From IMG/VR virus record IMGVR_UViG_2703719355_000021: a DNA stretch of 35,247 bases, one strand, 5' to 3'. Below the pieces are notes generated by a model. The model did no database searches. It worked only from the letters and a program-made list of their open reading frames with translations, and had not been told where the DNA came from. The position numbers and the translations under genes were made by a program. Below, in pieces: positions 1-30,470 of the stretch (position 1 is its first letter; the number at the start of each line of letters is the position of its first letter). The DNA is from a virus (taxonomy: Duplodnaviria; Heunggongvirae; Uroviricota; Caudoviricetes).

Positions 1-135
1 AAAGAGTTCCTTTCAAATTTAAATAAGCGTTAAGCCCACCACTCTTACTGGTGGGCCTCAATTTAAATTTGGGTGCCACTTCGACCATACCCTGGCAACC
101 GATTGACGGGGGATTGCTCCCCCGTCGCGGTTTCC

Positions 136-276
136 TTACTGCTTACACTGTAAGAACGCCGCAAACTCCGCTCCCCAGAAGCTCATCCGTATTTCACACA
201 GCGAACCGTGCAACATCCAGATGATGAGGATTGCCGTCACGCAGAACGTGATGGCCGTAAGCGATTTTTGCGACAT
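136..276 (-). CDS. hok: Hok/Gef-family type I toxin, 46 aa small membrane peptide
   Basis: Not in ORF track (<60 aa). Translation MSQKSLTAITFCVTAILIIWMLHGSLCEIRMSFWGAEFAAFLQCKQ: one TM helix followed by SLCEIR...EFAAF, matching the conserved Hok motif (R1 Hok ...KSLCEIRYRDGHREVAAF...). AAGGAG ribosome-binding site 8 nt upstream of the ATG. Confidence 0.7.
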   Translation of the reverse strand: MSQKSLTAITFCVTAILIIWMLHGSLCEIRMSFWGAEFAAFLQCKQ

Positions 277-406
277 AGCACTTGCTCCTTTTCCGGAGAG
301 GCGCTAACCTTTCACTTGTCAAGGTAATGCGGTTAGGGCCTCGGTTAAACAGAGATGTTTTCCGGGGCCTTTCCACATCTGGCCTTCGGGTATTCCCTCC
401 GACCAT
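194..406 (-). CDS. mok-like overlapping reading frame (70 codons) spanning the hok start
   Basis: Track ORF of 70 aa in a different frame, starting upstream of hok and ending inside it, the same geometry and size as mok in hok/sok loci. No sequence similarity asserted. Confidence 0.4.
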   Translation of the reverse strand: MVGGNTRRPDVERPRKTSLFNRGPNRITLTSERLAPLRKRSKCYVAKIAYGHHVLRDGNPHHLDVARFAV

Positions 407-466
407 CAGCCGAAAGGCACCCGCGCGTAATCTATCGCTTTTTTGTTACTCCGGCAATTCTGCCTG

Positions 467-727
467 TTAATTCTGAGGTAAAGGCAAGCTCATCTGATTG
501 TTTCCCCTGTGTGAAGCTGGCAGATCATGCCACGGGATATCTTCTGAAGAGTGAACGCCGGAGGCGTGTTTTGATGTGAATTTATGGAAAGCTTCCAGTG
601 TTGAGAAGCATACGCCGCATTCCAGATTGTTACACTGGTAATACTTTTGCCGCACGGTGTTTGAATCATTTTCCGGACGACTGGTGCGGATACGGGCAGA
701 TGCGCCACAAAGCGGACAACGGAACAT
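467..727 (-). CDS. ogr: Ogr/Delta-family zinc-finger late transcription activator
   Basis: N-terminus MFRCPLCGASARIRTSR...YYQCNNLECG matches P2 Ogr (MFHCPLCQHAAHARTSR...YHQCQNVNCS) with a C4 zinc finger; GGGAGG ribosome-binding site upstream. Confidence 0.85.
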   Translation of the reverse strand: MFRCPLCGASARIRTSRPENDSNTVRQKYYQCNNLECGVCFSTLEAFHKFTSKHASGVHSSEDIPWHDLPASHRGNNQMSLPLPQN

Positions 728-769
728 AGCGACCTCCCTTAACGTGGTGCTGTCGCTATTCTAAGTTGC

Positions 770-1879
770 TCACTCTGTTTCCGCTATCCATTCCGGGATT
801 TTTGCCTCAAGCTCAAGCTGCGTGGTAAAGCCGCTGTTATCAATGGTGTGCTCGGCTTTTGCAATAATCCAGTCCTGATTATCAATCTCGCTTTTAAATC
901 CTGTTACCGTGCCATGCATTTCGGGGTAGAGTTCTGCACGTCCACGTGCCAGCGTGATGGAAAATGATGCGGCTCCGCGTTGTAGCTGCTGCCACTTTGC
1001 CGCCGCTGCGCGTCTTGCTGCCTGCTCGTTCTGATAAGTCTTGCGTAACACAAACACATTGCCTTCCGCACCTTCCATATAATCACCTTCACGGCTGCTG
1101 CTTTTCTCCTTTTTGGGTTTTGGCGGTTTACGGCGTTTTACGCTGACCTTTTTCTTTTTCCCGTAATTAAGATCAAGCCAGTGGGCGCGTACCCCCGTAT
1201 ACGCCTCGCGGTCAGCAATACGGAACTGATGGCGATCGCCGCTGCTGCGTGTAATGGCGAACGAGGGCAACGGCTGGCCCTGTGCGTTCACGCCACCACC
1301 GGGCATGATGAATAACAGATTGCCGCTTTTTACCGTGGTGATTGCGCCCAGCATTTCCGCCATGCGCGTAAGGAAGGACATATCGCTTTCTTCGGTCTGG
1401 TCGGCGTGGTCGATTTCGATATCCATCAGCATTTCGCTGATTTGCGGTTTCAGACCATACCGATGAGCGATGGCGGATACCACACGCTCAACGGTCACAT
1501 CATGCCAGGACACCTCACGTTTAACGTTAAATTCATCCCGAAAATCTGCGCTTCTGGCTGAAACAGTCAGCCTGTCCGGCGGTCCTTCGTGAGCGATTTC
1601 ATCAACAATGTAAGTGCCTTTTTCTGTCAGCGGTTCTCCTTTCCAGCCAATGAGAACCGTCAGGCGCGCGCCCCGTGGCGGTAGCTGCAACTGACCATCC
1701 GCATCATCCAGCGTGATGGTGAGCTGGTCCGCTTCAAATCCCCGGTTGTCGGTCAGTGACAGACTCATCAGGCACTCTGCCACGCCGGACAGCGTTTCCC
1801 CCTCCGCGAGAATATCAAAATCCGGCATTTTCACGGGGTCTGTGCTCTGACTGAGCAATTGCATGGTGGTGTCGGTCAT
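770..1879 (-). CDS. D: tail protein gpD (late control gene D family)
   Basis: Clear similarity to P2 gpD (LTDNRGFEADQL..., SARSADFR, ESWHD, lysine-rich KKKKVSVKRRKPPKPKK segment, EGxYMxGExxNVF). Start moved to the internal ATG at 1879 (GGGAGGG ribosome-binding site); the track ORF extends to 2011. Confidence 0.9.
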   Translation of the reverse strand: MTDTTMQLLSQSTDPVKMPDFDILAEGETLSGVAECLMSLSLTDNRGFEADQLTITLDDADGQLQLPPRGARLTVLIGWKGEPLTEKGTYIVDEIAHEGPPDRLTVSARSADFRDEFNVKREVSWHDVTVERVVSAIAHRYGLKPQISEMLMDIEIDHADQTEESDMSFLTRMAEMLGAITTVKSGNLLFIMPGGGVNAQGQPLPSFAITRSSGDRHQFRIADREAYTGVRAHWLDLNYGKKKKVSVKRRKPPKPKKEKSSSREGDYMEGAEGNVFVLRKTYQNEQAARRAAAAKWQQLQRGAASFSITLARGRAELYPEMHGTVTGFKSEIDNQDWIIAKAEHTIDNSGFTTQLELEAKIPEWIAETE

Positions 1880-4163: not shown

Positions 4164-4327
4164 TCACCCTGGTGTGCTTTGAGCACATCGAAGATCTGGT
4201 GGCGGATATTGCCGCCATTTTTAACTGGTCGCCCGCCGAAATCTTCATGATGACGCCCGGCGAAGTGGTTAGCTGGCGCGAGCGGGCGGCACTTCGCAGC
4301 GGGAATGCAGATAATGAAGACTCTTGA
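4091..4327 (+). CDS. E' extension reading frame (E+E' product by -1 programmed frameshift)
   Basis: The -1 frame relative to E is open from about 4061 to 4327 and overlaps the start of T. Candidate slippery heptamer A AAT TTT at about 4106-4112 in the E frame. Confidence 0.7.
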   Translation: MRCGCKFYERARLWREERAGDGSVITLVCFEHIEDLVADIAAIFNWSPAEIFMMTPGEVVSWRERAALRSGNADNEDS

Positions 4328-7121
4328 TATCCGGGTCGCTTTCAGCGCCGTTGACAGGCTGACCCGGCCTGCCGAAAACGCCCGCCGCCTGATGGGGCAG
4401 TTTGGTGACTCCATCCAGCGAACGCAGGGGGCGATCAAAAATCTCGAGCGTCAGGCGCGTTCATTTGAGCGCGCCCGCGACGCTGTCAGTAAAGCGGATG
4501 CGGGTATCGTGAAAGCACGACGCCAGCTTAACGCCCTTAATCAGTTACAACGCACGGGTACAGTGCTCAGCGAAAAGCAACAAAAGCTGATGCAGCAGTT
4601 AAGCACCCGGCTTGAACGCCTGAATGAATCGCGCACACGGGAAATTCAGAAAATGCGGGAGCTTGGCGGAGAGCTGAAACGCCACGGCATTTCCCTAACA
4701 GGCAGCGATAGCACCATCCAGCAGGCCATCAGACGCACCGAACAGTACAACAACCAGCTTGAACGCGAACGGCAGGCGCTTGCGCGTGTAACACGTGCGC
4801 GTGAGCGGTATTCGCGCGCGCAGGAAACCGCGGGAAAACTGAAAACAGGTGGTGCGCTGGCAATTGGTGCGGCAGCGGCGGGCGGCTATGCTGCCGGGCG
4901 TTTTTTGCAGCCTGCGATCGGGTTCGGGAAAGAGATGTCCCGCGTTCAGGCACTGACGCGAATCGACCAGAACAGCCCGCAGTTTAAGGCGCTGCGTGAG
5001 CAGGCGTTAAAACTTGGCTCTGAAACGCAGTTCACTGCAGGCGATGCCGCCAGTGGGCAGGCATTTCTTGCAATGGCTGGCTTCACTCCGCAGGCCATTC
5101 AGGCTGCGCTTCCCGGCGTACTGAGCATGGCAACGGCTGGCGGTATGGATCTCGGCGAAACGGCAGATATTGGCTCAAATATCCTGACGCAGTTCGGCCT
5201 TTCTGCTGACCAGATGGACCGGGTCGGTGACACACTCACCGCAGTGTTTACCCGTACCAACACTGACCTTCGCGCACTGGGCGAAACCATGAAATATGCA
5301 GGTCCGGTGGCGGGCAAGCTGGGAATATCGCTGGAGCAGGCCGCAGCGATGGCGGGCGTACTGGCGAATATGGGTATCAGGGGAAGTGATGCCGGGACGG
5401 CAATGCGTGCCAGCCTGGCTCGTCTGGCATCACCGCCAAAGGCGGCGGCAGAAGCTCTGAAAGAGCTGGGCGTGTCCGTCTCTGATGCGAACGGCAAAAT
5501 GCGCCCGATGGAGGATTTGCTGGCCGACCTTTATAAAGCCACCCGCAAATACGGGGAAGTTGACCGGGTATCGTTCTTTAAGGACATTGCCGGAGAAGAG
5601 GCTTTCACATCATTTATGGCTCTCGTTGATGCGGCGGGTGACGGCTCCCTGCCCAAACTGAGAAAAGAACTTGAGGGCGCACGCGGTGAGGCTGAACGCA
5701 CGGCAAAGGTTATGGCCAATAACCTTGATGGCGACCTGAAATCACTCGGCAGTGCATGGGAAGGGCTGCGTATCCGCATTGCAGATCTGATTGATGGTCC
5801 GCTGCGTTCTGTCACGCAGTGGCTCACGCAGGTGGTCTCAAAGGTGACGGCGCTGGCACAGGCTCATCCGGTACTGACGCGCCAGTTACTGATAGCAGGC
5901 GGTGCGCTGCTGGCAATGACTGCAACGGTTGGCTCGTTGTCGCTGGTTATTGGAGTGCTTCACGGGAAGCTGGCCACGTTGCGTCTTGGTTTTTCTCTCC
6001 TGACCGGATCAATGAATGCTGTCAGGGTTCTGCCTGCATTATGGGGAATGGTGACAGGCTCCATCTCGTTACTGGGGGGCGCTGTCGGGGCGCTGTTCAG
6101 TCCGGTTGGGTTGATTGCTGCAGCGTTTGTCGCTGCGGCGGTTCTCATCTGGAAATACTGGGAACCCATCAAGGCGTTTTATGCCGGGGTGTTCAGCGGG
6201 ATTATGGAAAGGCTGACCCCGTTGCGCGAAACCTTTGAACGGTTTGGTCCTGTTTTTGACGCAATCGGAAGCGGGATCAGCCAGGTGTTTAACTGGTTTA
6301 AATCGCTGCTGTCACCGATGGAGTCCAGCAAGGAAACGCTGGATAAATGTACCAGTGCTGGCGAGATATTCGGTAACGTTCTTGGCGGTGCGTTACAACT
6401 TGTTCTGACGCCTGCAAAAATGCTACTGGATACGCTGGCGTGGATACTTGAAAAACTTGGCGTCCTTCCGGATGAAGCGGAAAGGGCGCGCAAGAAAATC
6501 GAAGACGCACAGCGTGCGGCCATTCTTCAGGACAAGGTTGCCTTGCTTCAGGGGGACCTGGCGAAAATCAATCCGCCGAAGCCTGTGGAAAATGGCAATG
6601 GCACCGGAGGTGATAAACCCAAAGACAACAAACCGCTCACAGACAGCAATACCGGTACGCTACGCAGACTCAGCAAAATTGCTGATAACACAGGTAAGCT
6701 GGTTGATGAGACGAAAAAACGCATTGGCCCCGGCGATATTGTCTTTAAGAACCTGCCCCGCGCACTTGCTGTTCGTGGGGAGTGGCAGGAGCGGAAGATT
6801 GCGCAGATCAGTAAGCCTGCTTCCGCAATCAACATCACACCCGTGGTCCCGACTCCTCTGCCTCCGGCGCTGGTCCCTGTTGTTGCGGCCAGCTCCCGCC
6901 CGGTGGCGGAGGCCATACGATCGCCAGTGGCATCAGTTCCTGCAACTTCCCGTAACCGGGAGCCTGTTGTCTCCGGATTTGGCGGTGAAATTCATGTTCA
7001 TCTGCATAACGTTGTTACGCAGAATCCCCGCGAACTGGCGAAACTGGTCGGTGAAATGGTCAGGGCAGAATTGGAACGACGCGACCGTGCCGGACGTGGC
7101 AGTTTTTACGATAAAGATTGA
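4305..7121 (+). CDS. T: tail tape measure protein gpT
   Basis: 938 aa; coiled-coil N-terminal region, Gly/Ala-rich hydrophobic central segment; position after E/E'. Confidence 0.9.
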   Translation: MQIMKTLDIRVAFSAVDRLTRPAENARRLMGQFGDSIQRTQGAIKNLERQARSFERARDAVSKADAGIVKARRQLNALNQLQRTGTVLSEKQQKLMQQLSTRLERLNESRTREIQKMRELGGELKRHGISLTGSDSTIQQAIRRTEQYNNQLERERQALARVTRARERYSRAQETAGKLKTGGALAIGAAAAGGYAAGRFLQPAIGFGKEMSRVQALTRIDQNSPQFKALREQALKLGSETQFTAGDAASGQAFLAMAGFTPQAIQAALPGVLSMATAGGMDLGETADIGSNILTQFGLSADQMDRVGDTLTAVFTRTNTDLRALGETMKYAGPVAGKLGISLEQAAAMAGVLANMGIRGSDAGTAMRASLARLASPPKAAAEALKELGVSVSDANGKMRPMEDLLADLYKATRKYGEVDRVSFFKDIAGEEAFTSFMALVDAAGDGSLPKLRKELEGARGEAERTAKVMANNLDGDLKSLGSAWEGLRIRIADLIDGPLRSVTQWLTQVVSKVTALAQAHPVLTRQLLIAGGALLAMTATVGSLSLVIGVLHGKLATLRLGFSLLTGSMNAVRVLPALWGMVTGSISLLGGAVGALFSPVGLIAAAFVAAAVLIWKYWEPIKAFYAGVFSGIMERLTPLRETFERFGPVFDAIGSGISQVFNWFKSLLSPMESSKETLDKCTSAGEIFGNVLGGALQLVLTPAKMLLDTLAWILEKLGVLPDEAERARKKIEDAQRAAILQDKVALLQGDLAKINPPKPVENGNGTGGDKPKDNKPLTDSNTGTLRRLSKIADNTGKLVDETKKRIGPGDIVFKNLPRALAVRGEWQERKIAQISKPASAINITPVVPTPLPPALVPVVAASSRPVAEAIRSPVASVPATSRNREPVVSGFGGEIHVHLHNVVTQNPRELAKLVGEMVRAELERRDRAGRGSFYDKD

Positions 7122-30150: not shown

Positions 30151-30329
30151 GGTGTGGCCCCTTGTGTAGTAAGTTGTGAAAACTCACCATCCAGAGCTGC
30201 GAAACTGTGGGTGGCGAGACGTACGAGGTTCGCAGTACCGGCTACACAAGAACCCGGCCCGACCGAAGTCGGCCCCGTACGCCCCGCCATAATTCTGACG
30301 CGAAAAAAACGTGGCAATACAGTACGCAC

Positions 30330-30350
30330 AAAAAAACCGCTGGCGCGGTT
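30330..30350 (-). terminator. intrinsic terminator inside the early operon (minus-strand sense)
   Basis: Minus-sense aACCGCgccaGCGGT followed by seven T; flanked by complementary cgcaca / tgtgcg. Confidence 0.55.
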
Positions 30351-30470
30351 GTGCGCTTGTGTAGTCAGCAGGCTGCGAAACCCGGCACCCGTTTTGTGAG
30401 GTGCAGCGGAAATGTAACCTGACTGATTGCGGCATGGCAAGCGGTTTTTTTGTGTGTGCATTATGATCAC

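Follow-up and report, generated by a model that had tools for sequence, protein, structure and literature searches.

A Hok/Sok module downstream of ogr in a P88-like prophage, with an unconserved mok frame

Main

The stretch of DNA analysed here (the window; 35,247 nt, IMG/VR record IMGVR_UViG_2703719355_000021, Caudoviricetes) very probably carries, within its first 466 nt, a complete Hok/Sok module that lies just downstream of ogr as accessory cargo of a P88-like (Xuanwuvirus, P2-like) prophage, itself inserted at the raiA terminator. The locus is already known: RefSeq, PHROGs and the annotation of phage P88 all name its gene, and the very same peptide has been cloned before. Judged by comparison of homologous sequences, its single departure from the ordinary is the 'mok' frame, which is unconserved in this Hok/Sok branch. 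Our analysis sets out how the module is built (both promoters, the predicted ends of the transcript, Sok and the structural elements; Table 1), places it firmly within the prophage as ogr-linked cargo, and indicates that this widespread Hok type does not conserve mok, the textbook third gene.

Table 1. Features of the hok locus in window coordinates, with the basis of each assignment
Feature	Position	Strand	Basis or remark
Hairpin beyond the hok unit, probable local terminator	32..58	(-)	dG -18.1, z -4.8
hok mRNA unit, full length, 352 nt (predicted)	71..422	(-)	+1 = 422; 3' end-pairing element ends at 71
fbi-like 3' element GGUCGAAGUGGCACCC	71..86	(-)	15-bp helix with the 5' end
Conserved 3' UTR hairpin GACGGGGGA-GCAA-UCCCCCGUC	104..127	(-)	dG -22.2, z -5.1
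hok CDS, 46 aa + stop	136..276	(-)	Pfam PF01848, PHROG 251, RefSeq WP_000078916.1
70-codon 'mok-like' ORF, probably not a gene	194..406	(-)	Other frame; overlaps the hok start
sok promoter: -35 TTGCTC (282-287), 17-nt spacer, -10 TAACCT (305-310)	282..310	(+)	Conservation and R1-type layout
hok Shine-Dalgarno AAGGAG	285..290	(-)	8 nt before ATG; read directly
dcb-like / anti-Shine-Dalgarno stretch GCCUCUCC	296..302	(-)	Alternative partners in full-length and truncated folds
Predicted Sok antisense RNA, ~59 nt, approximate ends	317..375	(+)	Fold; sokB/sokC offset
GAGGC at the canonical mok Shine-Dalgarno position	338..342	(-)	No mok start codon after it here
ucb-like element GGAAAGGCCCC	364..374	(-)	Predicted to pair with tac once the 3' end is removed
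tac-like 5' element GGGUGCCUUUCGGCUG	407..422	(-)	Pairs with 71-86 in the MFE fold; mean column identity 0.96
hok promoter -10 box TAGATT (inferred)	429..434	(-)	6 nt before the conserved GGGTGCC 5' end
hok promoter -35 box TTGCCG (inferred)	452..457	(-)	17 nt upstream of the -10 box
ogr, late-gene activator	467..727	(-)	Pfam Ogr_Delta, 52.3 bits; upstream neighbour, same strand

The Hok peptide

The minus-strand ORF of 46 residues (MSQKSLTAITFCVTAILIIWMLHGSLCEIRMSFWGAEFAAFLQCKQ) encodes a Hok/Gef peptide, as an earlier note on this DNA had recognized from its motif, and the strong ribosome-binding site which that note described is present as AAGGAG. The peptide groups with Hok/Gef in profile searches: Pfam HOK_GEF (PF01848) scores 29.9 bits against a gathering score of 22 (E 4.1e-7; residues 7-44 on profile positions 5-42 of 42), and PHROG 251 ('MokW-like host killing', moron category) matches full-length over residues 1-46 (E 1.3e-22, 80.6 bits). 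RefSeq labels the ORF 'Hok/Gef family protein' (WP_000078916.1) in E. coli genomes and plasmids. The NCBIfam models NF007290 (HokA equivalog; 34 bits versus a cutoff of 89) and NF007279 (Hok subfamily; 21.6 versus 73) both score below threshold, so the peptide is not HokA and belongs to a separate Hok cluster. It has the approximately 50-residue length, single N-terminal hydrophobic helix and conserved C..T, LCE and E..A of the family. Aligned with R1 Hok and five relatives, M1, C12, T14, S25, C27, E28, R30, E37, A39 and A40 are invariant; the conserved Hok positions listed in a recent preprint (M1, C16, T18, L30, C31, E32 and E41; bioRxiv 10.1101/2025.08.07.668861) are the same set. A search with a seven-sequence Hok alignment yielded no more than 9 loci, and the organism names given for several of them are implausible. 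The 'MokW-like' in the name of PHROG 251 refers to Hok-type peptides and not to mok.

The same preprint (Escalera-Maurer et al., 2026, 10.1101/2025.08.07.668861) contains the window peptide exactly: 72_1621 in its Table S2, a member of the high-abundance Hok cluster 72, is identical and was cloned (as LRP137) and tested as one of 45 homologues. The only non-toxic homologues in that set were 19_179, 60_1482 and 69_1540, and by way of 72_1621 the window peptide is among the homologues found toxic on overexpression. The assay overexpressed the coding sequence only, to which the study as a whole was confined, with mok, Sok and mRNA structure explicitly left out.

Transcript, promoter and module boundary

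The limits of the hok transcript are drawn from several coinciding boundaries. BLAST homology with every other hok locus spans exactly 422 to 71, stopping immediately past the fbi-like element, and the Rfam model RF01794 ('sok') matches from 422 to 263 over its full length on the hok-sense strand (E 1.4e-9; 48.4 bits, below the gathering score of 59). The 352-nt transcript folds at a minimum free energy of -160.3 kcal/mol (z = -7.4). Over 69 aligned sequences the whole fold keeps 88.9% of cells paired, against about 40% when the partners are slid, and double-sided changes number 222 against 83.5 in shuffles, a difference whose significance the shuffle controls overstate because the 69 homologues are related.

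We placed the hok and sok promoters by comparison with homologues and with an R1-type locus, and the assignments reflect conservation; the R1-type reference is pMTY1886 (L006) rather than R1 itself, and served solely for layout and as a positive control. In the alignment a TTGNNN hexamer at 17-18 nt spacing is found also in divergent homologues with unrelated upstream contexts, and the -10 position reads TAGAAT, TAAATT, TACATT or TAGAGT. A generic sigma-70 promoter scan of window positions 1-800 called no site. It had been suggested that a full-length leader with sok would run into the 3' end of ogr; instead, with a 5' end at about 422, the -10 and -35 boxes fit into the 44-nt gap after the ogr stop, and the whole module, promoter included, lies between that stop and position 71 with zero overlap.

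Two perfect hairpins had likewise been assigned to the 3' region of the hok mRNA. The one at about 36-58 is real (core 34-40/50-56, extendable to 32-58, with no T4 run), but falls outside the conserved module: segment 1-70 is present in only 91 genomes, and homology to all other hok units ends at 71. It is probably a local terminator. A stable hairpin follows within 70 nt of fbi in 68 of 70 distinct units, 49 of which have a T-run as well. The other, at about 104-125, is both real (stem 105-113/118-126) and part of the hok mRNA 3' structure as claimed. It keeps 99.8% of cells paired over 69 homologues, with compensatory changes in four pairs, and lies, like its R1-type equivalent (GGCGGGC-GCA-GCCCGCC), after the hok stop and before fbi. 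It may act as the stop for 3' trimming.

Predicted alternative RNA pairings and a proposed Shine-Dalgarno gate

Predicted folds of the hok mRNA differ between the full-length and the shortened RNA. When the RNA is full length its two ends pair, and this tac/fbi helix keeps 88.6% of cells paired across 69 homologues, although compensatory changes are few, the 5' end being nearly constant. In truncated and nascent RNA the tac-like element takes positions 364-374 as its partner instead; the resulting tac/ucb helix has 95.6% of cells paired, most pairs invariant and one pair compensatory (CG in 57, UA in 6). Covariation support for both helices is thin, as there is little variation to draw on.

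The same alternation is predicted to reach the hok ribosome-binding site. In the full-length fold, the partner of the hok GGAG is CUCC of the dcb-like stretch (helix 8, with 93.8% of cells paired), whereas in the truncated fold GAGGC (338-342) pairs with GCCUC (298-302; 96.2% of cells paired, most pairs invariant); truncated and nascent folds both contain the tac/ucb helix and the Shine-Dalgarno/dcb stem. For the full-length RNA, GGAG is predicted to be unpaired with a probability of 0.01; truncation raises this to 0.09, and blocking the Sok target of the truncated RNA returns it to 0.01. The two shifts go in the same direction in 64/65 and 65/65 homologues, respectively. Even 0.09 is a low accessibility, and ribosome-assisted opening through some upstream translation is therefore possible.

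By analogy with R1 hok/sok, the module would work as follows. A stable full-length hok mRNA would be translationally closed; slow 3' trimming back to the 104-127 hairpin would remove fbi, upon which tac would re-pair with ucb and GAGGC with GCCUC, partly freeing the hok Shine-Dalgarno. A short-lived Sok would bind the leader and block expression, and we propose that Hok would consequently be made only once the Sok supply stops. Hok would then insert into the inner membrane and kill or arrest the cell.

A predicted Sok antisense RNA

A sok promoter and terminator had been expected at 380-450 on the plus strand; we place the promoter at 282-310 and the predicted RNA at about 317-375. None of the 69 aligned homologues departs from the complement of the -10 box (identity 0.98), the hok Shine-Dalgarno and the -35 box overlap just as they do in R1, and the antisense strand of the R1-type locus has the matching layout TTGCGC-N17-TATCCT. 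In its fold the predicted RNA has a single-stranded 5' tail of 15 nt, then a long stem-loop and UUU (dG -24.1, z -3.4). In K-12, sokB and sokC are annotated as RNAs of 57-59 nt whose 5' ends, at -48/-49, stand at the offset from hok that the predicted Sok has. At the level of sequence features the locus thus has what defines a cis-encoded antisense Sok. The target of the Sok 5' tail is hypervariable, with 32 variants among 66 units. A YUNR U-turn motif (UUGA) is present in the Sok-target loop; its chance expectation is too high for it to count.

The mok-like frame is not conserved

A 70-codon frame had been described as overlapping the start of hok exactly as mok does. The frame exists and the overlap is real, but the exact likeness fails: its ATG, at mRNA +17, lies within the 5' end-pairing (tac) stem and has no Shine-Dalgarno. 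No Pfam, NCBIfam or PHROG family matches its product.

A canonical mok start lies about 57 nt upstream of hok. The script that recovers GAGG-N7-8-ATG at -57/-58 from the positive controls hokB, hokC and the R1-type locus (pMTY1886, with ATG at -57 in frame with hok) finds no such start in the window, and the relatives of the window locus keep the GAGG without a start codon. In 39 of 67 distinct homologues, P88 and P88_4B11 included, the leader has no ATG, GTG or TTG that opens an ORF as far as the hok Shine-Dalgarno; candidate starts in the others are inconsistent in position (+17, +45, +47, +72, +101) and differ in frame too. P88 and P88_4B11 (95% identity) have stop codons that close both overlapping frames at +104 to +131. 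The claim of a mok is thus not upheld, the frame being unconserved among homologues and the canonical start missing; by these comparisons the 70-codon ORF is probably not a gene.

A canonical three-gene arrangement would make this ORF, or a version of it starting at TTG +101, a functional mok that is needed to open the hok ribosome-binding site and is itself blocked by Sok. Such an arrangement would fit the frame standing open from the ATG (406) through the hok start, and its being kept open in the close lineage of the window (units 97-99% identical), where TTG +101 falls inside the predicted Sok target. It would also fit R1, in which ribosomes must translate mok as far as the hok Shine-Dalgarno (PMC9841398), and a hok Shine-Dalgarno that is predicted to be mostly paired even in truncated RNA. 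We nevertheless consider it unlikely, given the homologues with no suitable start or inconsistent ones, the stops in P88 and P88_4B11, the canonical start that the controls have and the window lacks, the ATG buried in the tac stem, the 16 nt that separate TTG +101 from GAGG, and an ORF product outside every family searched. Two other substitutes for a mok start were tried and rejected: ATG +45 is nearly invariant, but the end of its ORF varies, and GTG +108 meets a stop after 3 codons and is missing in several lineages.

Since a conserved mok leader ORF is lacking, translation of hok probably starts from its own strong Shine-Dalgarno, for which the CUCC/GGAG hairpin would be the gate. We tentatively extend this to the cluster-72 hok loci at large, which could form a natural mok-less branch. 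GAGGC and GCCUC would then serve as RNA-structure elements only, hok would be read from its own AAGGAG, and Sok would repress with no leader ORF to block, by sequestering GAGGC, upon which CUCC would re-close the Shine-Dalgarno, with or without RNase III cleavage. Under such mok-less control the variable target of the Sok 5' tail would imply copy-specific regulation in genomes that hold up to 9 copies. If the absence of mok proves true experimentally, the R1 rule that Sok acts through mok would not be general for the family, and the locus would offer a simpler natural system for antisense RNA control of a distant ribosome-binding site. The literature searched holds no statement on whether any hok subfamily lacks mok.

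Position within the prophage

The distance from the end of ogr to hok +1 is 48 nt in 64 of 103 IMG/VR units, and in 57 of the 61 units that are at least 90% identical. The earlier note had set the locus at the left prophage edge and offered two origins for it, phage cargo between att and ogr or a chromosomal hok. The window in fact starts inside the prophage: in strain PE15, attL lies at the raiA terminator, 1,539 bp to the left of window position 1 with three more cargo genes between, the right junction lies just right of the integrase, and a 20-27 bp att core is duplicated at both junctions. Comparison with an uninfected strain, proposed in that note as the way to place attL, agrees: the raiA-pheL intergenic region of K-12 is an empty site without hok, and attL is at raiA rather than between hok and ogr. 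Of the two origins, phage cargo stands and chromosomal hok falls. Over the rest of the window, identity to P88 is 96% across 93% of 24.5 kb.

Host chromosomal DNA, with the prophage integrated beside or into it, might be suspected from the frequency of chromosomal hok loci in E. coli and from a window that starts so near hok. Both PE15 junctions, with their shared core, and the K-12 site free of hok contradict this, as does the ogr-hok arrangement common to sequenced phages (P88 and others). A host origin is refuted for the genomes examined, and we give it next to no credence in general.

Distribution and relation to known systems

Of 5,426 complete E. coli genomes, about 1,750 have the hok unit, which recurs in settings unrelated to one another: P2-like phages, Stx phages (where it adjoins lom), and plasmids of the IncI1 and IncF groups. 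Its closest phage relatives are P88 (gp52, 'MokW-like host killing'), P88_4B11, 500465-2, Chuche and PhiR44_2, which have 94-97% nucleotide identity to the window over 71-470. In P88 and other Xuanwuvirus phages, as in the window, hok is directly downstream of ogr and encodes the same 46-residue peptide or one that differs by one residue. Past fbi, the sequence of these phages is unrelated to window 1-70; P88 has a classical terminator and a different neighbour gene, and its version of the overlapping 70-codon frame is shut by stop codons. Our literature searches on phage P88 and hok, and on P2-like phages, hok and ogr, found nothing specific.

This distribution bears on whether the module could be an inactive relic that hitch-hikes with the prophage, no longer expressed or toxic, like most chromosomal hok loci in K-12. 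In favour of this, IS elements flank or interrupt hokA and hokC of K-12, and the canonical mok is missing from the window locus. Against it, 66 of 67 distinct units keep the Hok ORF whole; between units of 71-99% identity, the promoter boxes, tac, fbi, ucb and the 3' hairpin are preserved, compensatory changes included; the identical peptide is among the homologues toxic on overexpression; and the unit recurs in all the carriers named above. Inactivity therefore seems to us very improbable.

The paradigm of such systems, plasmid R1 hok/mok/sok (PMC9841398), shares with the window locus a single-TM Hok with the LCE and E..AA motifs, the tac/fbi end pairing (with a tac/ucb alternative that is predicted for the window), the GC-rich hairpin between the hok stop and fbi, a sok promoter opposite the hok Shine-Dalgarno with the -35/N17/-10 layout, and GAGG at the mok Shine-Dalgarno position. 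It differs in sequence and setting: peptide identity is only 33%, the window Hok has 46 residues against 52 in R1, and the window locus lacks a mok start codon and is carried by a phage instead of a plasmid. The K-12 loci hokA, hokB and hokC belong to the same family, HokA giving the best (sub-threshold) NCBIfam match, and sokB and sokC agree with the predicted Sok in size and offset; unlike the window locus, all three have an annotated mok (mokA being a pseudogene) and are not phage-borne.

As to what hok does in P2-like prophages, the candidates are prophage retention, exclusion of other phages, and help with lysis as reported for hokW. The hokW-sokW module of the Stx2 prophage Sp5 likewise sits on a temperate phage, a functional one. 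No other prophage hok has had its role tested; here HokW is produced upon induction and raises phage release twofold (Takada et al. 2021, PMC8621323). The label 'MokW-like' suggested that the window locus might be hokW itself, an identification refuted by the primers and by Table S2 of the cluster-72 preprint, which show HokW to be of the HokD type. HokW of Sp5/933W has 51 residues (MKQQKAM…DYESEK) and belongs to HokD cluster 35_712, whereas the window peptide belongs to cluster 72. Stx phages separately bear a cluster-72 unit beside lom, 81% identical to the window.

A hok-type locus carried as phage cargo

The core reading of the earlier note, a hok-type type I toxin locus, proves right. Its 46-aa minus-strand ORF and ribosome-binding site are present, and the profile search that it had called for places the peptide in Pfam Hok/Gef (score 29.9, above the gathering score of 22) and in PHROG 251 across its whole length (E 1e-22), with scores under both cutoffs for the NCBIfam HokA and Hok models. 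RefSeq labels the ORF a Hok/Gef family protein; the name 'MokW-like host killing', used in RefSeq phage records and PHROG, sits on Hok-type ORFs and is misleading. The reading frame is undamaged in all but one of 67 distinct homologous units. The module itself is ordinary and has been described before: a catalogue of 32,532 hok loci, which shows their enrichment in prophages, covers it (Escalera-Maurer et al. 2026, bioRxiv 10.1101/2025.08.07.668861), and the exact peptide, 72_1621 (cluster 72), is among 45 cloned homologues, only three of which, not including this one, were non-toxic. The scope of that study leaves out mok, Sok and the mRNA.

The locus had been placed at the left prophage edge, as either a chromosomal hok or phage cargo. 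Positions 1–470 are 100% identical to many E. coli chromosomes, and outside that segment the window matches phage P88 (Xuanwuvirus, Peduoviridae) at 96% identity. Comparison of E. coli PE15 with the empty K-12 raiA–pheL site shows the att core CAACGC(G/A)CCTTCGGGCGCGTTTTTTGT duplicated at both PE15 junctions, the left one lying at the raiA terminator, 1,539 bp outside the window, with hok inside; the window's right end is the integrase stop, followed by pheL. Of 61 units of at least 90% identity in IMG/VR contigs, 57 have ogr ending 48 nt ahead of the hok +1. The att junctions, P88 identity and constant ogr spacing thus identify hok as phage cargo fixed beside ogr, not host DNA, and the edge placement was wrong. 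Left of position 1, PE15 carries the start of a TM2-domain gene, then a com-like gene, a DNA methyltransferase and raiA; the Com-family regulator and methyltransferase form a com/mom-like pair. P88 has other genes at this position, which makes the stretch from ogr to att a region of variable cargo. The att core is also the terminator of raiA and its 3′-derived sRNA RaiZ, and integration regenerates this terminator on the raiA side.

Features of the hok locus, the prophage junctions and other small RNAs (window coordinates unless a flank is named)
Feature	Position	Strand	Remarks
First hairpin	core 34-40/50-56, extendable to 32-58		folds far better than shuffled sequence
3′ hairpin	105-113/118-126 (104-127)	-	folds far better than shuffled sequence
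hok ORF, 46 aa	136..276	-	ORF reading of minus strand 1-470
70-codon ORF	194..406	-	other frame than hok
sok promoter (putative)	-35 TTGCTC 282-287; -10 TAACCT 305-310	+	17-nt spacer; mirrors R1 TTGCGC-N17-TATCCT
hok Shine-Dalgarno AAGGAG	285-290	-	8 nt 5′ of hok ATG
GAGGC with GCCUC	338-342 with 298-302	-	alternative helix expected after 3′ trimming
Predicted Sok RNA	~317 to ~375	+	15-nt free 5′ tail and long stem-loop
tac partner GGAAAGGCCCC	364-374	-	alternative helix expected after 3′ trimming
hok -10 TAGATT (putative)	429-434	-	kept in divergent homologues as TANNNT
hok -35 TTGCCG (putative)	452-457	-	17 nt from TAGATT
ogr stop	467	-	
C4 antisense RNA	30207-30294	-	Rfam 83 bits, above gathering score
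isrK Hfq-binding RNA	30330-30404	-	Rfam 64 bits, above gathering score
Cargo genes between hok and attL	4564-6000 of PE15 left flank (L003)		TM2-domain protein, Com-family regulator, DNA methyltransferase
att core CAACGC(G/A)CCTTCGGGCGCGTTTTTTGT	~4437-4462 (L003) and ~2726-2750 (L004), PE15; ~1020-1045 (L005), K-12		

Extent and fold of the hok mRNA

Rfam RF01794 ('sok') matches the hok-sense strand at 422→263 (E 1.4e-9, score under the gathering threshold) over its full model length, down to the start codon of hok; what the model captures is therefore the hok leader, not an antisense RNA, and the start of the match puts the 5′ end of the mRNA at 422. BLAST searches of phage and plasmid sequences and of 5,426 complete E. 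coli genomes delimit a conserved block of exactly 422→71: matches of 100% to 75% identity span all 352 nt, and all end directly after GGCACCC (77–71). This unit occurs in 1,750 of the 5,426 genomes, at up to 9 copies per genome. Its RNA folds with a 15-bp helix joining the first and last nucleotides (MFE −160.3 kcal/mol, z −7.4), a tac/fbi pairing that typifies hok mRNAs in the account given for R1 (PMC9841398).

We aligned 69 distinct homologous units (71–99% identical; from IMG/VR contigs, phage genomes, plasmids and genomes). On this alignment, 88.9% of pair cells of the full-length fold are standard, against ~40% with slid partners, and two-sided changes occupy 222 cells against 83.5 in shuffles, controls that are generous because the sequences are kin. 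Both hairpins previously noticed in the 3′ region are real; that at 104–127 is paired in 99.8% of cells and has compensating changes at four pairs, and such changes also occur in a long-range helix that joins the Sok-target region to the 3′ UTR. The two alternative helices are 95–96% paired yet nearly invariant.

Segment 1–70, including the 32–58 hairpin, occurs in only 91 genomes, and P88 differs here; nearly every hok unit has some stable hairpin at this place, usually with a T-run. The hairpin is therefore best read as a locally acquired terminator.

Promoters and the predicted Sok RNA

Divergent homologues with differing upstream contexts keep TANNNT at the same distance, with TTGNNN 17–18 nt higher up. 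From the positions of TAGATT and TTGCCG, the whole inferred hok promoter fits within the 44-nt gap that separates +1 from the ogr stop, so, contrary to what had been proposed, a full leader with sok need not overlap ogr. Likewise, sok itself would lie not at 380–450 but where the table puts it: the complement of its −10 is invariant in 69/69 sequences, the predicted RNA folds with dG −24.1 (z −3.4), and annotated K-12 sokB and sokC have the same size and offset. Generic promoter and terminator scans called neither the hok nor the sok sites.

Conservation in the unit is lowest in the segment targeted by the Sok 5′ tail (317–331; mean column identity 0.75, with 32 variants among 66 units) and highest in its flanks (0.97–0.98). 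In genomes that carry as many as 9 copies, such variation could make Sok action copy-specific. One IMG/VR contig (L041) carries two cluster-72 units (4318–4668 and 5040–5392, ~720 bp apart) of the same peptide type with differing Sok-target sequences.

Between the ogr stop and the hok promoter (423–466) there is neither hairpin nor terminator, and ogr of the P2-like Salmonella prophage BTP5 is reported to be expressed in all tested conditions (PMC7067206); ogr read-through could therefore give 5′-extended hok transcripts.

A conserved mok appears to be missing

The 70-codon ORF described as mok-like exists, but its reading as mok does not hold. Its product has no family matches in Pfam, NCBIfam or PHROG, and the frame opens at an ATG at mRNA +17, within the tac stem, without a Shine-Dalgarno. 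A script search found GAGG followed 7–8 nt on by ATG, at −57/−58 from the hok ATG, in hokB, hokC (consistent with K-12 annotation) and the R1-type locus; the window retains GAGG and has no start codon at the mok position. No ATG, GTG or TTG in the leader opens an ORF reaching the hok Shine-Dalgarno in 39 of 67 distinct units; candidate starts in the remainder lie at inconsistent positions and frames. In P88 and P88_4B11 (~95% identical), stop codons close both overlapping frames. We conclude from these comparisons that the window's ORF arose as an accident of its lineage and that the cluster-72 Hok type, as judged by sequence, has no conserved mok, an absence in an abundant Hok cluster that may interest specialists.

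Thermodynamic predictions fit direct gating of the hok Shine-Dalgarno: the predicted unpaired probability of GGAG is 0.01 for the full-length RNA, rises to 0.09 once the 3′ end is trimmed and returns to 0.01 with the Sok target blocked, shifts that go the same way in 64/65 and 65/65 homologues. This is suggestive only, because absolute accessibility remains low.

Relation to other hok systems and small RNAs

The R1-type locus, from plasmid pMTY1886_IncFII, has the same element order (leader, GAGG, sok −35/−10 opposite the hok Shine-Dalgarno, hok, GC-rich hairpin, fbi, terminator-like hairpin). Its ATG at the mok position (−57) shares the hok frame and opens an ORF of 71 codons (L006 344–559), the arrangement of K-12 mokC/hokC; PGAP calls only its 33-aa C-terminal piece Hok toxin. 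hokW-sokW of Sp5 is the only prophage hok with a functional study, in which HokW after induction made lysis faster and doubled phage release (PMC8621323); HokW of this Sakai Stx2 prophage is a HokD-type peptide, unlike cluster 72. Stx phages such as Shigella phage 75/02 Stx (L007 1501–1875) carry a cluster-72 unit next to lom, 81% identical to that of the window. Enterobacterial hok units also occur under Planococcaceae MAG, Vagococcus sp. and Xanthomonas pisi labels (L011, L012 and L015; peptides 72–98% identical to the window's), the first two retaining a P88-type ogr stop and spacer upstream; these are probably contamination or mis-binning.

Elsewhere in the window, C4 and isrK matches adjoin each other within the early genes' part of the P88-like prophage and, by sequence, look like an immunity/antirepressor-type small-RNA module.
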